Source: a virus (taxonomy: Duplodnaviria > Heunggongvirae > Uroviricota > Caudoviricetes). Taken from it: a stretch of DNA of 30,935 bases. This document shows, in pieces, positions 4,465-13,122 of the stretch; position 1 is the stretch's first letter, and every line of letters starts with the position of its first letter. Location: positions 1 to 30,935 of IMG/VR virus record IMGVR_UViG_2802429247_000007; one strand, 5' to 3'. The position numbers and the translations under genes were made by a program. The notes beneath the pieces were generated by a model. That model saw only the letters and a list, made by a program, of their open reading frames with translations. It was not told the origin of the DNA and did not search any database.

Positions 4465-4919
4465 TGTTTTTGGTTTTAACTGTTCCGCGTGCGCTCAGCC
4501 GCATTCACCACATCACAAAATTCACTTTAAAAAGGGCGGCAGAGCAGTCACGGAGTAAAACTGATACCGCCAAACGTCACCAGAAAATTGATAACAGAGG
4601 GCGTTGCAGCGGGGTTGTCACTTAAGCGTATGGTCAACCTGACAACCCGGTGTCCTCAACGGGGAAGGAATAACCCCGCCATACTTACCGCCGCGCCATT
4701 TCGCGGAGTGCCACAACCGGAAGCGCACGGTCGACGAAAATTTAACGACAGGCTATCTATGAACCAACTACCTCGCCGTGCGCTTTCGCGTTATGGTCTG
4801 ACTTTTCAGGGAAATATCCTTTCAGTAAACTGTCAGTGCCGGATGTTCACCCGTGTCCGGCGCACGCACTCCACCTCACCCGTGGAGAACTCCTTAATTA
4901 CCAACCCTCAGGAGGGTGA

Positions 4920-6386: not shown

Positions 6387-7025
6387 TTAAATATCTTGTT
6401 GAATTTTAAAGCATACGCCCAATATGCAAGATAGATCATCCAGCATAATTGAAGGGTAGCGAGGATTCGTGGGGACTAAAAGAATATCCGGCCCTTCTAT
6501 CTCCAGTTTACGAATGACAGGTGTTGTGGTCCCTTTGGGTAAGGCAAGGACAATATTTCCTGGTTGTACGGTTCGATCGGGATCAACAAAAACTGTTGAA
6601 CCATTTGGGATGGAAACTCCCCCACCAGATGTTGACATACTGTCACTCTCTAGAACAACTGCAAAGGTATTGGCCGGGATTTCTCCGACAAGCTGCACAC
6701 AAGAGGTTATTGAGGAATTTTTCATATAATCACTCCAGCTTGCTGCCTGCTGAAGTGATAGTAGCGGAACCGTTTTTATCGGCGGTAAAGATAGATCAAG
6801 CGAATCACCTGTATTTAACTCTCCTCCATTAAGAAGCCAATTTTCGTTTACTTTCAATATCTTTGCCAGTGAACTTATGTAACGCGAGGACGGCGCTCCT
6901 CCACCGTTCATCCATTGACTTACGGAGCCTTTTGATGCGCCAGTGGCATTGACAAGGTCTTTGCCTTTCAGGTTTAGCGCATGCATACGTTGGGTTATGC
7001 GTTCAGATATTGTTTGCTTGCTCAT
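6387..7025 (-). CDS. cI: cI-like prophage repressor (N-terminal HTH, C-terminal S24/LexA-type autopeptidase domain)
   Basis: 212 aa; HTH region (LKGKDLVNATGASKGSVSQWMNG); C-terminal S24-like region. No leader or SD before the ATG. Confidence 0.92.
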   Translation of the reverse strand: MSKQTISERITQRMHALNLKGKDLVNATGASKGSVSQWMNGGGAPSSRYISSLAKILKVNENWLLNGGELNTGDSLDLSLPPIKTVPLLSLQQAASWSDYMKNSSITSCVQLVGEIPANTFAVVLESDSMSTSGGGVSIPNGSTVFVDPDRTVQPGNIVLALPKGTTTPVIRKLEIEGPDILLVPTNPRYPSIMLDDLSCILGVCFKIQQDI

Positions 7026-7058: not shown

Positions 7059-7088
7059 TTGACTTTCTTTGGTTTTGATTATTAAACT
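7059..7088 (+). promoter_or_regulatory. Candidate pR: -35 TTGACT (7059-7064), -10 TAAACT (7083-7088), with operator GTTTT-GATTAT-TAAAC (7072-7087) over the -10
   Basis: Read directly; same -10 hexamer as the pL candidate; operator copy has one mismatch to the palindrome. Confidence 0.45.
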
Positions 7089-7116
7089 TTTGGCGTTCAG
7101 TTTTATGGAGCGACTC

Positions 7117-7359
7117 ATGAAAAAATCAGAAGTATTAGGCTATTTTGGCGGAGTTGTTAAAACAGCCGCAGCTCTAGGAACGTCAAAAACCACAGTCAGC
7201 ATGTGGGGGGAAGAGGTTCCGTGGAAATGGGCGTTGCTAATTCAGGCAGTCACTGCCGGGGCGCTCAAATATGAGTTACACATACCGACGGTTGTCATTC
7301 CCGGTTCTGATCATAATCCGCCTTCTAACCAAGGGGGGATTCATGAAAATCAAGCATGA
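7117..7359 (+). CDS. Cro-like HTH regulator (YdaS-like)
   Basis: Start at ATG 7117 (MKKSEVLGYFGG...) preceded by ggag; small HTH protein divergent from cI. Confidence 0.75.
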   Translation: MKKSEVLGYFGGVVKTAAALGTSKTTVSMWGEEVPWKWALLIQAVTAGALKYELHIPTVVIPGSDHNPPSNQGGIHENQA

Positions 7360-7768
7360 ACACATCCGCATGGCGATGAATGCCTGGGCGCGTCCTGATG
7401 GCGAAAAAGTTCCAGCAGCTGGAATAACCCAGGCTTATTTTGAGTTGGGTATGACGTTTCCTGAACTGTATGACGACAGCCATCCGGAAGCCTTGGCTCG
7501 CAATACCCAGAAAATTTTCCGCTGGGTAGAGAAAGACACCCCTGATGCAGTTGAAAAAATTCAGGCGTTGTTACCAGCGATCGAAAAGGCAATGCCACCT
7601 TTGCTGGTGGCCAGAATGCGCAGCCACAGTTCAGCTTATTTTCGGGAGCTGGTGGAGACGCGGGAGCGATTGGTGAGAGACGCTGATGATTTTGTCGCAG
7701 TGGCAATCGCCGGTTTCAATCAGATGAACCGTGGTGGCCCGGCAGGAAATGCTGTGGCAGTACATTGA
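7343..7768 (+). CDS. YdaT-like protein (cII-position regulator)
   Basis: ATG at 7343 with RBS aagggggg; overlaps the cro-like gene by 17 nt; sequence resembles Rac YdaT from memory. Confidence 0.55.
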   Translation: MKIKHEHIRMAMNAWARPDGEKVPAAGITQAYFELGMTFPELYDDSHPEALARNTQKIFRWVEKDTPDAVEKIQALLPAIEKAMPPLLVARMRSHSSAYFRELVETRERLVRDADDFVAVAIAGFNQMNRGGPAGNAVAVH

Positions 7769-7839: not shown

Positions 7840-8934
7840 ATGGCTAACGCTTGGCTCAGATTATGGCATGACATGCCAAATGACCCTAAGTGGCGAACAA
7901 TTGCCAGGGTGTCAGGGCAGCCAATTGCAACAGTGATGGCAGTGTATATCCACCTCCTGGTGAGCGCGTCACGAAATGTCACGCGAGGTCACATTGATGT
8001 CACGACAGAAGATTTGGCAAGTGCGCTCGACGTGACAGAAGAGGTAATTGATTCAATTTTGCAGACGATGCAGGGGCGGGTACTTGATGGTGATTTAATC
8101 ACTGGATGGGAAAAACGCCAGGTGCTTAAAGAGGACAACGGCAATATTTCGCAAACCGCAAAATCTCCTGCAGAGCGCAAGAGGGCGCAGCGAGAGAGGG
8201 AAAGAAAGCGGGAACAAAATGGCGATTGTCACGGCGCGTCACGAAATGTCACGCACATGTCACGACGAGTCACGACAGATAAAGATACAGATAAAGATAC
8301 AGATAAAGATACAGATAAAGATACAGATCAAGAAGATCAAAACACTATGGTCCATGGCGTAAAAAACGCCACGAACCAGGCAGGGGATGTTCAGACCGTC
8401 AATCTTGGTCAGCCAGCAGGCACGACACCGGAAGCCGATTCAGCGTATGCGCTGAAAGCCGATTCGGGCGCTGTGCAGCAGGTGATGACCGCAAGGCCGG
8501 AGCAATCACACCAACTGCAGCAGCCTGAAGCCGATTCCGCCATTCAGCGGGAAGCCGATCGGGTAGTCCCGGAAAACACCGGGCAGCCTGTGGGACGAGT
8601 AGATTATCCGGATGTGTTCGAACAGGTCTGGCGGGAATACCCGTTGCGTGCTGGGGCAAACCCGAAGAAATCCGCTTTCAGTGCCTGGAAGGCCAGATTA
8701 CGCGAGGGGGTGCCACCAGAGGCCATGCTGGATGGTGTGAGGCGTTACGCAAGATACCTGGCGGCTACCGGGAAAACGGGAACGGAATTTGTTCAGCGAG
8801 CGACGACGTTTTTTGGACCGGACCGGAATTTTGAAAACCCCTGGTTGCTCCCGGTAAGCGGTACGAACAACCAGCGTTGTGTGAATCATATTTCTGAACC
8901 GGATACCGAAATTCCACTGGGCTTCAGGGGGTAA
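7840..8934 (+). CDS. Replication initiator (O-like / YdaU-like) with C-terminal DnaT-like domain; contains internal iterons and a (DKDT)4 repeat
   Basis: RBS agaagagg before ATG 7840; N-terminal region typical of phage replication proteins; C-terminal YPDVFEQVWREYPLRAG...FFGPDRNFENPWLL. Confidence 0.75.
   Translation: MANAWLRLWHDMPNDPKWRTIARVSGQPIATVMAVYIHLLVSASRNVTRGHIDVTTEDLASALDVTEEVIDSILQTMQGRVLDGDLITGWEKRQVLKEDNGNISQTAKSPAERKRAQRERERKREQNGDCHGASRNVTHMSRRVTTDKDTDKDTDKDTDKDTDQEDQNTMVHGVKNATNQAGDVQTVNLGQPAGTTPEADSAYALKADSGAVQQVMTARPEQSHQLQQPEADSAIQREADRVVPENTGQPVGRVDYPDVFEQVWREYPLRAGANPKKSAFSAWKARLREGVPPEAMLDGVRRYARYLAATGKTGTEFVQRATTFFGPDRNFENPWLLPVSGTNNQRCVNHISEPDTEIPLGFRG
7964..8004. repeat. 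Iteron-like cluster 1: four GTCAC(G/A) motifs at about 10-11-bp spacing
   Basis: gcgcGTCACGaaatGTCACGcgagGTCACAttgatGTCACG; 21-bp block gcgcgtcacgaaatgtcacgc recurs in cluster 2. Confidence 0.6.
8228..8275. repeat. Iteron-like cluster 2: five GTCACG motifs at about 10-11-bp spacing
   Basis: GTCACGgcgcGTCACGaaatGTCACGcacatGTCACGacgaGTCACG; helical-phase spacing. Confidence 0.6.
8278..8325. repeat. Perfect 12-bp tandem repeat (GATAAAGATACA)x4, in-frame, encoding (DKDT)4
   Basis: Read directly; A/T-rich and immediately downstream of iteron cluster 2. Confidence 0.9.
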
Positions 8935-8974: not shown

Positions 8975-9397
8975 GTGGCAAAAGTTTTTACACAAGAAGA
9001 GCGGGAAAAAATTAAAGGGCAGGTTCTTGAACTCGTACGCCAGAGTGGGCGCGAGACGTTACGACAACTGGAAGCTAAAACTGGGGCAACAAGATATCTG
9101 ATGAGCGTTCTGGCCAGAGAGCTGGTTGCCAGTGGCGATGTATACAACTCTGGTTACGGGTTATTCCCGTCTGAACAGGCGCGTAAGGACTGGCAAAATG
9201 CCCGTAAAAAGCTCTCAAGGGCAAAGCTGAAGAAACCATCTGCGGTTGATCCGGACCTTATCTGGTCATTACCTGATGGAGAAATACGTCGTTACGACAG
9301 GCGTCATAATATAATTTGTACTGAGTGTCGTAAAAGCGAAGTTATGCAGCGGATATTGTCGTTTTATCAGGGGGATGTTCGGTATTTTTTGAAGTGA
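8975..9397 (+). CDS. Hypothetical protein (140 aa), GTG start with strong RBS (aggagg)
   Basis: Occupies the position of the helicase loader (P/DnaC) but is too small and shows no such motif. Confidence 0.5.
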   Translation: MAKVFTQEEREKIKGQVLELVRQSGRETLRQLEAKTGATRYLMSVLARELVASGDVYNSGYGLFPSEQARKDWQNARKKLSRAKLKKPSAVDPDLIWSLPDGEIRRYDRRHNIICTECRKSEVMQRILSFYQGDVRYFLK

Positions 9398-9589
9398 CGA
9401 GATTAAAGTGCATTAGTTCAGATGTAAATTGACATTTTGTGGCACAGGGTAGAGCTAGCGTGGTTGTCCGCTTTGTGCCAGAAGCGGAAGTTGCTTACAT
9501 CGTGCTATGTTAGTTTAATGGGAGCAGGTAAAGGGGGGGATTCCCCAGTAATTCCCCATAGCTTCCCTACCAGGAAGGTAGGCATAAAA

Positions 9590-9620
9590 AACCAGCAATA
9601 ACAGGCTGGTTTATATAATC
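9590..9620 (-). terminator. Stem-loop (aaccagc/gctggtt, 7 bp) with flanking A and T runs; functions best as a minus-strand terminator just 3' of the tRNA fragment
   Basis: Hairpin read directly; T-run immediately follows the stem in minus orientation. Confidence 0.5.
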
Positions 9621-9624
9621 TTTT

Positions 9625-9673
9625 TGGTCGGCACGAGAGGATTTGAACTTCCGATCCCCGACACCCCATGACA
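9625..9673 (-). tRNA. Degenerate 3' fragment (about 48 nt) of a tRNA-Pro gene (anticodon loop through CCA); not a complete tRNA; att-site-like remnant
   Basis: Minus-strand sequence gtcatggggtgtcggggatcggaagttcaaatcctctcgtgccgacca matches the 3' half of E. coli tRNA-Pro(GGG) from memory with about 2 mismatches; the 5' half is absent. Confidence 0.6.
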
Positions 9674-9965
9674 CTGCTTGTAAAACGCTGAGAGCCGCGC
9701 TATTGCTGGTTAAAAGCACTATTCATATGTATAAACAAACAGTGCTTTTTCAACAAAATCTGCTCTATATACTTCAATGGCTTAAGTGGTGGTTTCTCCC
9801 CATGCTTGGTAGGTATAATACCTTGATGCTAAAGTAGGTTACTCACTTGAAGAAACAGCTAGTTAGTATCAATTATGTTGCTCCAGCTGACTGAAAAAAG
9901 TTATCAATGATGCATGGAACATACGCCCTTGAATTTTTCATTAGATTTTAGAAAAGGAATTGAGC

Positions 9966-10847
9966 ATGGGTTTAGCTGAGTGGTTTTGCGGATTTTGCTC
10001 CAATCTGACTGTAAAAGATGGTGGAACAATTTCAACTAGATATAGGAATATAACGAAGCGTTTAAATACGGATTTTTGGGATAGCAGTTCTGATACTTCT
10101 CATAGTCTCTACGTTGGATCATATGGTCGGAACACAGCTACGCAAGGCTTGAGCGATCTGGATATGATTTTTCAGCTACCATATTCCGAGTATCAAAAAT
10201 ACAATAGCTACTTAGGAAATGGGCAGTCAGCATTGCTTCAAGCGGTTAAGAGATCTATTGAAAAAACCTATGCTACCACTAGTATTAGAGGTGACGGTCA
10301 AGTGATCCTTGTACCGTTCAATGATGGAATTACATTTGAAGTCGTTCCAGCTTTCCTCAATGTTAGTGATAGTTACACATTTCCTGATGCGAACGGTGGT
10401 GGCCGTTGGAGGATTACAAATCCAAAGCCAGAAATTTCTGCAATGAGGTTAAGAAATAACATTACCAATAACAATTTGGTGCAACTTTGTAGAATGGCAA
10501 GAGCTTGGAAGCGTAAATGGGATGTACCTATAAGTGGTTTACTCATTGATACGCTTGCGTATCAATTCATTGAAAATTGGGCGCATAGAGATAAGTCGTA
10601 TCTTTACTACGATTTCATGAGTCGTGATTTCTTCAAATGGATGGCTGATCAAGATACGAGTAAGGAGTATTGGAAAGCGCCAGGAAGTGGTCAGTATGTC
10701 TATGGTAAAGGGCTTTTCCAATATAAAGCAAAACGGTGCTATAACATTTCACTCGAAGCTATAGAGCATGAAATGGCGACCCCAAAACGCGAATGGTCGG
10801 CTAAGCAAAAATGGCGGGAGATTTATGGATCAACATTTCCAGACTAA
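9966..10847 (+). CDS. SMODS-type (cGAS/DncV-like) nucleotidyltransferase, CBASS cyclase candidate
   Basis: Motif GSYGRNTATQGLSDLDMIF (GS-x9-DxD) plus downstream acidic [DE]hhP-like motif (NDGITFEVVP); RBS aaaaggaa before ATG 9966; AT-rich relative to flanking phage genes. Confidence 0.72.
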   Translation: MGLAEWFCGFCSNLTVKDGGTISTRYRNITKRLNTDFWDSSSDTSHSLYVGSYGRNTATQGLSDLDMIFQLPYSEYQKYNSYLGNGQSALLQAVKRSIEKTYATTSIRGDGQVILVPFNDGITFEVVPAFLNVSDSYTFPDANGGGRWRITNPKPEISAMRLRNNITNNNLVQLCRMARAWKRKWDVPISGLLIDTLAYQFIENWAHRDKSYLYYDFMSRDFFKWMADQDTSKEYWKAPGSGQYVYGKGLFQYKAKRCYNISLEAIEHEMATPKREWSAKQKWREIYGSTFPD

Positions 10848-11406
10848 GGATACACCTGAATCTAGAAGGGTTTTAGAAGGGCAGATCAGAGAGTGTTATG
10901 GTCGGGTCGTTTACTCACATAAGACGCATGAAAAATGCTCAGACATTCTCCTATCTCGACTATCTTCTATAAAGTTTTGGCAAATAATTCTCTCCGCCTT
11001 AACTACTGGAGGCTTTCTAGCAACTTTTTTCGGCGCGGGTGAAGTAGGCACGGGGGTTGGGATTGTTGTTTCAACACTGCTTCTCATTCTTAACGCTTAT
11101 ACCAAAGATTATGACCTTGGTGAGTTGGCGCAAAAACATAAGCAGGCTGCAAATGAGATCTGGTTAATCCGAGAAAAGTATTTATCATTGCTTACAGACT
11201 TAGCAATGGGTGAAAAACCAATCGAGCAATTGCAGTCAGAGCGGGATTCGTTACTCGAGAGTTTACATTCAGTGTATTCAGGCTCTCCTAGTACAACATT
11301 TGAAGCTTATAAAAAAGCACAGGACGCATTAAAAAACAAAGAAGATTTAACATTTTCTGAAGAAGAAATAGATGCTTTTCTTCCCAAGGAACTGAAAAGA
11401 AGATAA
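10825..11406 (+). CDS. SLATT-like two-transmembrane effector
   Basis: Start overlaps the end of the upstream gene by 23 nt; two hydrophobic helices (IKFWQIILSALTTGGFLATFF and GTGVGIVVSTLLLILNAY) followed by a charged helical tail. Confidence 0.7.
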   Translation: MDQHFQTKDTPESRRVLEGQIRECYGRVVYSHKTHEKCSDILLSRLSSIKFWQIILSALTTGGFLATFFGAGEVGTGVGIVVSTLLLILNAYTKDYDLGELAQKHKQAANEIWLIREKYLSLLTDLAMGEKPIEQLQSERDSLLESLHSVYSGSPSTTFEAYKKAQDALKNKEDLTFSEEEIDAFLPKELKRR

Positions 11407-11547: not shown

Positions 11548-11931
11548 CTAGCTGGCTTTAATTTCTCCATGTGGAACTACAACCCAGTCGATATGGTTTT
11601 GCGTGTAGATTTTAGTTGATTTCGCATCGCTGTGTGCCATTCGTCCTTGTGGATCGATGCCCTGCTGATCAAAAAGATGTGCTGCTAAGGCGCGAATTTC
11701 GTGAAAGGTTGGCCTTTCATCCATCGGCCGTTTGTCATATAAACCCAGCTTGTCACGCGTAGCTGAAAACGACCGACTCAAATAGTCTGGTGCAACTTGA
11801 GTGGGATGAGAAACTTCTTTGCTGCGTTTAACCTGCCGTTCCGGGATCTGGTGAACGATAAATGGGCTGGCCACGTTATTGCGACTTTCATCAATGATCC
11901 GCTTCAATTCGTCACCAATCGGTGACCGCTA
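11548..11931 (-). pseudogene. Truncated tyrosine integrase (C-terminal catalytic fragment only, about 125 codons; in-frame stop at 11929-11931 upstream)
   Basis: Fragment ...TFHEIRALAAHLFDQQGIDPQGRMAHSDAKSTKIYTQ aligns with the C-terminus of the intact int at 1..1119 and of lambda Int; no N-terminal or core-binding region. Confidence 0.78.
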
Positions 11932-12352: not shown

Positions 12353-12966
12353 CGTAATCTAGTAAAATCGTCGGTTTTTAATCAATTAATTAACTCATCT
12401 ATTACCAACTCCTGGTTGGTTGCTAATGATGTCATAGTGTCGCTAACGGCCTGAATTACTCAGTCCGTTCTTCGCTCAAAGCGGGCTAGAAGGTTAGCTT
12501 GCGTCGGACTTGGCGTATTTAAAGAAGTGCTGGTGGTGACAGGTTATTATGTTCCATTTCTACAGAACAAAATCACAGAAACTATACCCAATAGTTGTAT
12601 TGAATCACTGACGAGACAGCCTCATATTTATCAGGACTGGTGTACGTCCAATACAGGAGGTTGTGGTGCTGGTTCTCAAATGTGCGCTGGCTATTGCTGC
12701 TGTAATGGCAATTTATTGCCTTGCTGTTGTTCTTATGGATCGCCTTTCTGACTGATTTCATATTGGCGAGGTAACGGGAGTTAAGTAGAATGGCTGCGGG
12801 TGCTTGAGGCTATCTGTCTCAGGCATGAACACCAAAGGCAGATAGAGAAAAGCCCCAGTTAACATTACGCGTCCTGCAAGACGCTTAACATTAATCTGAG
12901 GCTCAATCTATGCTGAACACATGTAGGTTAGCCTCTTACGTGCCGAAAGGCAAGGAGAAGCAGGCT

Positions 12967-13122
12967 ATGAAGCAGCAAAAGGCGATGCTAATCGCCCTGA
13001 TCGTCATCTGTTTAACCGTCATAGTGACGGCACTGGTAACGAGGAAAGACCTCTGCGAGGTACGAATCCGAACCGGCCAGACGGAGGTCGCTGTCTTCAC
13101 AGCTTACGAACCTGAGGAGTAA
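12967..13122 (+). CDS. hok: Hok/Gef-family type I toxin (51 aa); in-frame upstream extension from 12910 is Mok-like
   Basis: MKQQKAMLIALIVICLTVIVTALVTRKDLCEVRIRTGQTEVAVFTAYEPEE is a canonical Hok-family sequence (recalled as RelF/HokD-like); upstream leader resembles the hok mRNA 5' elements. Confidence 0.88.
   Translation: MKQQKAMLIALIVICLTVIVTALVTRKDLCEVRIRTGQTEVAVFTAYEPEE

Follow-up and report, generated by a model that had tools for sequence, protein, structure and literature searches.

Phage origins of replication can reside inside the gene of the protein that activates them. In lambda, repeats bound by the initiator and then an AT-rich tract lie within gene O, between the parts coding for its two protein domains and downstream of cro and cII in the early rightward operon, while repeat number varies in lambdoid relatives, with four in lambda and six in Stx phages (PMC7466680). 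Similarly, SPP1 G38P binds direct repeats in its own gene 38 (oriL) beside an AT-rich unwinding element (PMC6316719). The 30,935-nt stretch of prophage DNA analysed here (positions 1 to 30,935 of IMG/VR record IMGVR_UViG_2802429247_000007, henceforth the window) encodes on its plus strand, at 7840..8934, an initiator of 364 amino acids (aa), which carries within its coding sequence two arrays of GTCAC(G/A) iterons and, directly after the second, an A-rich tandem repeat. As the arrays and the A-rich repeat are conserved as DNA across many bacteria, sequence comparison indicates that this segment is very probably the phage's origin of replication, located within the gene of its own initiator and composed of iterons and an unwinding element.

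Comparison with described replication systems

In its logic, the locus is best read as a known arrangement, the lambda- or SPP1-type 'origin inside initiator gene'. As in lambda, the AT-rich tract is found directly beside iterons, the origin candidate occupies the linker-coding segment (array 1 lying additionally in the part coding for the N-terminal domain), and the initiator gene follows cro- and cII-like genes; as in lambdoid phages, repeat number varies between relatives, and an N-terminal specificity module and a C-terminal module recombine independently. The likeness to lambda put forward in the sequence-only reading holds for the placement of repeats and AT-rich tract inside the initiator gene, but does not extend to the protein, which is no lambda O homologue: it falls outside the lambda O family model because it matches no Pfam family, and its repeats are short asymmetric cores. 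Lambda iterons measure ~19 bp and possess internal dyad symmetry, whereas the cores of the window are 6 bp long, asymmetric and direct, with a 10-11-bp period, so that a set of at least four dyad-symmetric ~19-bp iterons is not present. Also different from lambda are the presence of two arrays ~260 bp apart, one of them in the coding sequence of the DNA-binding domain, an additional inverted copy, a DnaT-like C-terminal domain and a DUF977/Ren-like gene in place of P.

With SPP1 G38P the locus shares direct repeats together with an AT-rich element within the organizer's own gene, binding being predicted for the window, and with SPP1-type organizers in general the name 'phage replisome organizer', remote PHROG matches and an N-terminal domain with a fold like that of the DnaD N-terminal domain. 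On the other hand, none of the replisome-organizer models of Pfam is matched by the initiator (E <= 0.01), the second origin of SPP1 is located 13 kb away instead of two arrays residing in one gene, and SPP1 brings its own loader and helicase. By sequence, the initiator is at most a putative member of the Gram-positive replisome-organizer family. The iterons of plasmids such as P1 (incC/incA), pPS10 and RK2 are 17-22 bp long and located outside the rep gene, unlike those of the window; no sequence-level relationship of initiator or repeats to iteron plasmid replicons was found, nor do 17-22-bp iterons precede the initiator gene. A further likeness concerns the Escherichia coli primosomal protein I, DnaT, as the C-terminal ~85 residues of the initiator match DnaT C-domain structures by profile, and some records annotate initiator homologues as 'Primosomal protein I'. 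In contrast to DnaT, this domain is fused to a presumed origin-binding domain, and with 15.8 versus 201 bits the protein is no DnaT orthologue.

A description of the origin of this initiator family or of GTCACG iterons was not found in the open-access literature; for a different O-like protein, the paper on Pseudomonas phage MD8 speaks of 'repeats within the gene', and nothing more. Specifically, we did not find described the bipartite layout (one array in the sequence coding for the DNA-binding domain), an inverted copy that is conserved, a nearly invariant GATAAAGAT tract and the fusion to a DnaT-like domain.

Iteron arrays and unwinding-element candidate

Iteron array 1 (7968..8004, + strand) consists of four direct cores, GTCACG at 7968, 7978 and 7999 and GTCACA at 7988, spaced by 10, 10 and 11 nt, and encodes the loop of aa 43-55 (ASRNVTRGHIDVT) of the N-terminal domain. 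An inverted GTCACG core (8031..8036, - strand) is located 32 nt past its last direct core. Iteron array 2 (8228..8274, + strand) possesses five direct GTCACG cores starting at 8228, 8238, 8248, 8259 and 8269 (spacing 10, 10, 11, 10), encodes aa 130-146 as part of a disordered linker and is read in all three codon phases. A 21-nt block, gcgcgtcacgaaatgtcacgc, is shared by the arrays, being identical at 7964-7984 and 8234-8254 and in the same reading frame, so that the peptide ASRNVT is encoded twice. The clusters of four and five cores at 10-11-bp spacing and the common block which the sequence-only reading had reported are thus present as described. In the 30.9-kb window as a whole, GTCACG occurs 18 times versus 12.2 expected, nine of these 18 copies falling inside one 311-nt stretch (Poisson probability of at least eight plus-strand copies in that stretch, 4.6e-15), and no further GTCACG cluster was found elsewhere in the 31 kb.

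Array 2 is followed by an A-rich, purine-rich tract (8275..8340), the presumed DNA-unwinding element. An exact (GATAAAGATACA)x4 repeat at 8278-8325, in frame and encoding (DKDT)4, is the perfect A/T-rich 12-bp repeat anticipated from the sequence, to which Tandem Repeats Finder assigns a period of 12, 4.9 copies and 97% matches over 8275-8333; it is succeeded by GATCAAGAAGATCAA, which carries two GATC sites (8326, 8335). The tract, A-rich on the plus (coding) strand, is the GC minimum of the gene, with 26% at 8275-8324 versus 44-66% in the remainder, and the GC content of the candidate tract amounts to 26-30%. Its bottom strand (GATCTGTATCTTT) may resemble the 13-mers of oriC. A DnaA-box-like TATATCCAC left of array 1 (7947-7955) was dropped as a candidate element, since the corresponding DNA of locus L010 (GTATCTGCAC) does not keep it.

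Conservation of the DNA independently of the protein

Selection on DNA was distinguished from selection on protein in 21 GTCACG-type homologues without indels in the first 100 codons, over which they are 63-73% identical to the window at the nucleotide level, with a GC content at third codon positions (GC3) of 0.36-0.76. Invariant residues outside the cores are encoded by 3-6 codons each (L6 and R7 by six, P13 and T20 by four), with a mean major-codon share of 0.52. Within the cores, on the contrary, codons are fixed or almost so, namely A43 as GCG (90%), S44 as TCA (95%), V47 as GTC, T48 as ACG, G50 as GGT, H51 as CAC and V54 as GTC (100% each) and T55 as ACG (95%), and V65 in the inverted copy is GTG in 17 of 17, while the spacer codon R49 uses four codons; codon conservation differs accordingly between core and non-core positions (Mann-Whitney p = 1.6e-6). 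A conserved protein with synonymous disruption of the GTCACG periodicity had been named in advance as the outcome that would speak against an origin, and these homologues present the opposite, frozen synonymous sites in the cores. Furthermore, genes of the GTCACG type spell Val-Thr in both arrays as GTC ACG and those of the GTAACG type as GTA ACG, a synonymous switch, and the array peptides are wholly different between core types (ASRNVTRGH, ETQGNAGVTQSNA, SNATERGRTQN), while the 10-11-bp periodicity of the DNA is kept. Frozen core codons, the reading in three phases and the change of peptide under a maintained periodicity mean that selection acts on the DNA.

The layout extends to distant relatives, which comprise four metagenomic or genomic loci obtained via protein homologues (46-58% identity) and 40 further loci from a scan of species-representative genomes, the latter from Enterobacterales, Pseudomonas, Bordetella, Aquitalea, Chromobacterium, Stenotrophomonas, Acidovorax, Gilvimarinus and others. 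GTCACG is the commonest 6-mer of the gene in ~30 loci, and in these divergent loci recurs at gene positions 129, 139, 149 and 160, inverted at 192, and in a second array at ~387-430; the inverted core at position 192 (- strand) is kept in most GTCACG-type homologues. The isolated phages Pseudomonas P7869 and Aeromonas pAEv1818 have the identical two-array layout. If two arrays are defined by one 5-mer core present in at least three copies in each of two windows, they are found, ~260 bp apart, in 39 of 46 loci (Enterobacterales, Pseudomonas, Bordetella, Aeromonas, others), so that two separate clusters in one gene, which had been considered unusual, are the rule in this family. Across homologues, array 2 displays cores conserved to at least 90% and spacers to 40-60%, in a linker that is otherwise unconserved. 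Directly after it, nearly all family members carry a purine-rich (GATAAA/GATACA)n tract, and in most loci the AT-richest 30-mer (searched in gene nt 321-650) is located at this place, purines mostly making up 0.73-0.90 of it. With the last core as the anchor of the alignment, the consensus for the family is GTCACG-N4-GTCACG-N4-GTCACG-N2-AGATAAAGATAAAGA.

Core types switch between GTCACG, GTAACG(C) and CGAACGC, and each lineage uses its core in both arrays together. This co-variation and the frozen synonymous sites support the earlier proposal of a candidate ori inside the initiator gene. O157-type E. coli initiators, which combine an unrelated N-domain with the same C-module, possess two arrays of AAGGGGCTT with an 11-nt period, 256 bp apart (in the E. 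coli prophage loci L054 at 1166-1207 and 1422-1474, and L055 at 1160-1201 and 1416-1468), and their second array precedes a purine-rich (AAGAACAGGA)n tract. As these loci repeat the two-array plan with another word, the plan is general and no oddity of the window gene. Altogether, the alignments show that the cores, their helical spacing, the inverted copy and the (GATAAA/GATACA)n tract beside them are selected as DNA, independently of the encoded protein, and that cores and tract are co-inherited with the N-terminal winged-helix domain.

The spacers, too, are common to both arrays within a genome and different between genomes. In L010, a 39-nt block is 97% identical between 2287-2325 and 2569-2607, its counterpart in the window being the identical 21-nt block. 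These identities suggest that the two arrays evolve in concert by gene conversion. In L049 (a Serratia metagenome-assembled genome) and L052 (Pantoea), the N-terminus is conserved and the middle region (gene nt ~340-520) is longer and different, without GTCACG-type arrays; repeated CTACG/GTAGTA words appear instead in that of L052. These two loci may have an origin of another type, or their gene may be degenerate.

Copy number and module boundaries in close relatives

At least 80% of the initiator gene was detected in 1647 of 5426 complete E. coli genomes (~30%), in which the 241-nt segment around the 12-mer falls into length classes of 217, 229, 235, 241 and 253 nt, equivalent to 2, 3, 3.5, 4 and 5 copies. 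The 12-mer is therefore the site of copy-number variation that it had been expected to be. The four-copy allele of the window is rare; six sequenced E. coli phages (Tritos, Evi, 204576 and three more; 94-97% identical) have the same arrays and the 12-mer in two copies only. In E. coli variants 84-87% identical in the N-terminal part, array 1 is longer by 21 nt, which adds two extra cores in frame, and all five cores of array 2 are intact with changed inter-core spacers.

Partial matches to the gene end at query positions 458-500, that is, within the A-rich tract. The N-domain, together with both arrays, also occurs joined to other C-termini (DnaT-like domain, then a lambda-P-like gene), and the C-module of the window is found fused to an unrelated N-domain. 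The A-rich 12-mer tract marks the recombination joint between the N- and C-modules.

Proposed mechanism of initiation

After induction, the initiator would be produced by rightward transcription through cro and the cII-like gene, upon which its N-domain would bind the 6-bp cores in head-to-tail fashion along a single helical face, in line with their 10-11-bp period. It would fill array 2 with its five sites as well as array 1, ~260 bp upstream, with its four direct and one inverted sites, both arrays probably being united in a single wrapped or looped complex. The resulting stress would melt the adjacent 26%-GC purine-rich (GATAAAGATACA)n tract, whereupon the DnaT-like C-domain may hold the single-stranded DNA and/or recruit host DnaB-DnaC. 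As the arrays are placed in a surface loop and a disordered linker, which are tolerant places of the protein, units can be gained and lost in frame.

Four points weigh against this origin assignment. A binding, unwinding or replication assay for the initiator family was not found in the open-access literature; 7 of the 46 loci lack a recognisable two-array pattern; array 1 could serve control and not initiation; and that precisely the word GATAAAGAT is deeply conserved points to something beyond AT-richness as such and is left unexplained by the unwinding model.

A bolder version of the origin model, which we regard as possible but doubtful, takes initiator and origin as a genuine double code whose three-dimensional geometry is fixed, in which the loop and the linker part would be 'translated iterons' dictated by the binding sites. 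Switches of specificity (GTCACG, GTAACG, CGAACG, and AAGGGGCTT in the other N-domain type) would spread to both arrays by gene conversion, and the two arrays, at their constant distance of ~260 bp, and the inverted copy would act in one looped complex that melts (GATAAA)n. The tract would then be read as single-stranded DNA in a sequence-specific manner by the DnaT-like domain, comparable to DnaA-trios, and host DnaB-DnaC would be recruited without a phage loader.

Whatever its details, the replication module is widespread, occurring in ~30% of complete E. coli genomes and in phages and prophages of Pseudomonas, Aeromonas, Bordetella, Serratia and others. Such origins could be annotated by the signature (GTCACG-N4) x3-5, N2, (AGATAA)n with a second array ~260 bp upstream, and the core type predicts specificity groups. 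Codon recoding or synonymous engineering of the initiator gene would destroy the origin. The locus is a clear natural example of a protein code superimposed on a DNA code, and changes of specificity can be followed in it; the 12-mer copy series from two to five provides a natural test of unwinding-element length against initiation.

Alternative functions of the arrays

The arrays might be sites of the initiator that serve mainly autoregulation or copy control, by roadblock or handcuffing as at incA of P1, with unwinding taking place elsewhere, and perhaps array 1 alone might do so. In plasmid P1, origin and control arrays are separate. Two arrays and an inverted copy exceed the needs of a minimal origin, which counts in favour of a control role, and for lambda in vitro only the two iterons beside the AT-rich region are required (PMC7466680). 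Yet in almost every member array 2 adjoins the part of the gene with the lowest DNA stability, which is the classic arrangement of an origin, and there is no further GTCACG cluster in the 31-kb window. We consider a purely regulatory function unlikely; a control function would moreover be compatible with an origin and could hold for array 1 only.

Another regulator, most plausibly the adjacent cII/YdaT-like activator, could bind the arrays for a leftward (antisense) promoter inside the gene, which would then harbour no origin. The direct repeats recognised by lambda CII, TTGC-N6-TTGC, are spaced 10 bp, a YdaT-family gene is located directly upstream in most loci examined, and a weak minus-strand promoter-like match (8252 to 8225, -35 GTGACA) overlaps array 2, although the total of such matches is not above shuffled expectation. 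However, similarity of YdaT does not track repeat type. In an O157-type locus, the YdaT C-terminus is 86% identical to that of the window, yet the repeats (AAGGGGCTT) are entirely different, whereas in Salmonella L013 the GTCACG arrays are the same and YdaT is just 42% identical, and in GTAACG-type loci YdaT is 53-54% identical. In Pseudomonas phage P7869, the arrays are present and no gene annotated as YdaT- or cII-like is found upstream of the initiator gene. The repeats instead follow the type of the initiator N-domain and always adjoin an A-rich tract; repressor types, too, differ among loci with the same arrays. Binding of the arrays by cII/YdaT is rejected on these grounds, and the regulator explanation as a whole appears very improbable.

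That the repeats are purely a matter of the protein, an S-R-x-V-T-like peptide motif and a DKDT low-complexity linker generated by slippage and without DNA function, is suggested by the in-frame position of both arrays and the 12-mer, by the 21-nt block that yields ASRNVT twice and by the disorder of the linker. This reading is hardly credible, as it is contradicted by synonymous core sites frozen across hosts with very different GC3, by the reading of the array 2 core in three phases and by peptides that differ between core types while the DNA periodicity persists. Packaging (pac) and centromere sites are also short-repeat arrays at helical spacing, sometimes inside genes, but a pac recognition or partition site is equally implausible for arrays that sit in an early replication gene, co-vary with its N-domain and occur in phages with different neighbours (repressors, helicase partners), with no partition genes nearby.

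Initiator protein and operon context

The assignment of the repeat-bearing gene as a replication initiator, made initially from the sequence, agrees with its match to PHROG 3729 'replication initiation protein' (E 1e-253) and with the NCBI name of its homologues, 'phage replisome organizer'. The ATG at 7840 is fixed as the start codon because homologues begin with MANAW. According to an AlphaFold2 model, the protein consists of an N-domain modelled with confidence (aa 1-95), a basic helix (aa 110-129), a disordered region (aa 127-252) with a predicted local distance difference test score (pLDDT) below 30 in the linker, and a folded C-domain (aa ~255-340; pLDDT 72-90). The coding region of the presumably origin-binding N-terminal domain spans 7840..8124 (+ strand), and its predicted fold is a winged helix like that of the DnaD N-terminal domain. 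In the model, array 1 corresponds to the loop of aa 43-55 between two helices of this domain, and array 2 with the 12-mer to aa 130-162 within the disordered linker.

The C-terminal domain (8602..8859, + strand), presumed to bind single-stranded DNA or to recruit a helicase, matched the DnaT C-terminal domain in a profile search against PDB sequences (6AEP, E 2e-6; 2RU8, 1.6e-5; 9ZBT, 1.5e-4). No Pfam family was matched by the initiator at E <= 0.01, NCBIfam returned the DnaT tail alone, below threshold with 15.8 bits versus an equivalog cut-off of 201, and matches to replisome organizers in PHROG were remote (E 1e-8 to 5e-7).

Upstream of the initiator gene, a cI-like repressor gene (6387-7025, - strand), a cro-like gene (7069-7359) and a cII/YdaT-like gene (7271-7768) place it in a lambdoid early-right operon, and a DUF977/Ren-like (LygF) gene follows at 8975-9397. 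The window encodes no helicase loader of the phage's own, and neither a loader nor a P gene comes after the initiator. Relatives with the same N-module carry at the loader position a lambda-P-like, a DnaC/IstB-like or a primase-helicase gene, and such differing helicase-partner genes beside the same N-module show that the module of origin recognition is portable across strategies of helicase recruitment.

Further elements of the linker-coding DNA

The A-rich tract is closely followed on its right by a palindrome with imperfect arms, TGGTCCATGGCG-TAAAAAA-CGCCACGAACCA (8348..8378; 13 pairs on the minus strand), which folds better than shuffled sequences, with DNA folding z values of -2.6 (+) and -4.5 (-). 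Homologues with the same C-module retain it, also where the N-domain is unrelated, with too few informative substitutions for covariation. The palindrome may be a further (third) origin element or an antisense terminator.

A repeat (G/A)AAGCCGAT occurs four times in 8433-8560, with starts at 8433, 8457, 8529 and 8553 (spacing 24/72/24 nt). Its copies, of which C-module homologues have 2-4, maintain a constant codon phase and encode [E/K]-A-D-x in the disordered linker. Alanine in the AAGCCGAT repeats is encoded by GCC in 18 of 18 cases, GCC making up just 29-42% of the Ala codons in these genes; the repeat may be a peptide motif or a DNA site.

Other features of the prophage

Just past the replication module, a two-gene cargo (9960-11406; the open reading frames overlap by 80 nt) resembles a cyclic-oligonucleotide-based antiphage signalling system (CBASS) and consists of a SMODS oligonucleotide cyclase (PADLOC Cyclase, E 5e-144) and, as effector, a SLATT_4 protein with two transmembrane segments (E 1e-84). 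Related phages carry at the cargo position an FRG-domain gene (E. coli XDL) or an unannotated gene of equal size (Tritos). Beside the CBASS-like pair, a 119-aa fragment of a tyrosine integrase (11548-11907, - strand), which covers the C-terminal part only, suggests that the cargo was brought by a small integrating element located within the prophage.

ARAGORN found no tRNA in the window, and a permissive Rfam scan of 9380-9980 returned nothing credible. Elsewhere, the antisense RNA DicF (4534-4585, - strand; 76.7 bits) and the antitoxin RNA sok (12798-12972, + strand; 115.6 bits) are encoded, both typical of Qin-like prophages, with dicB/hokD as neighbours in related records.

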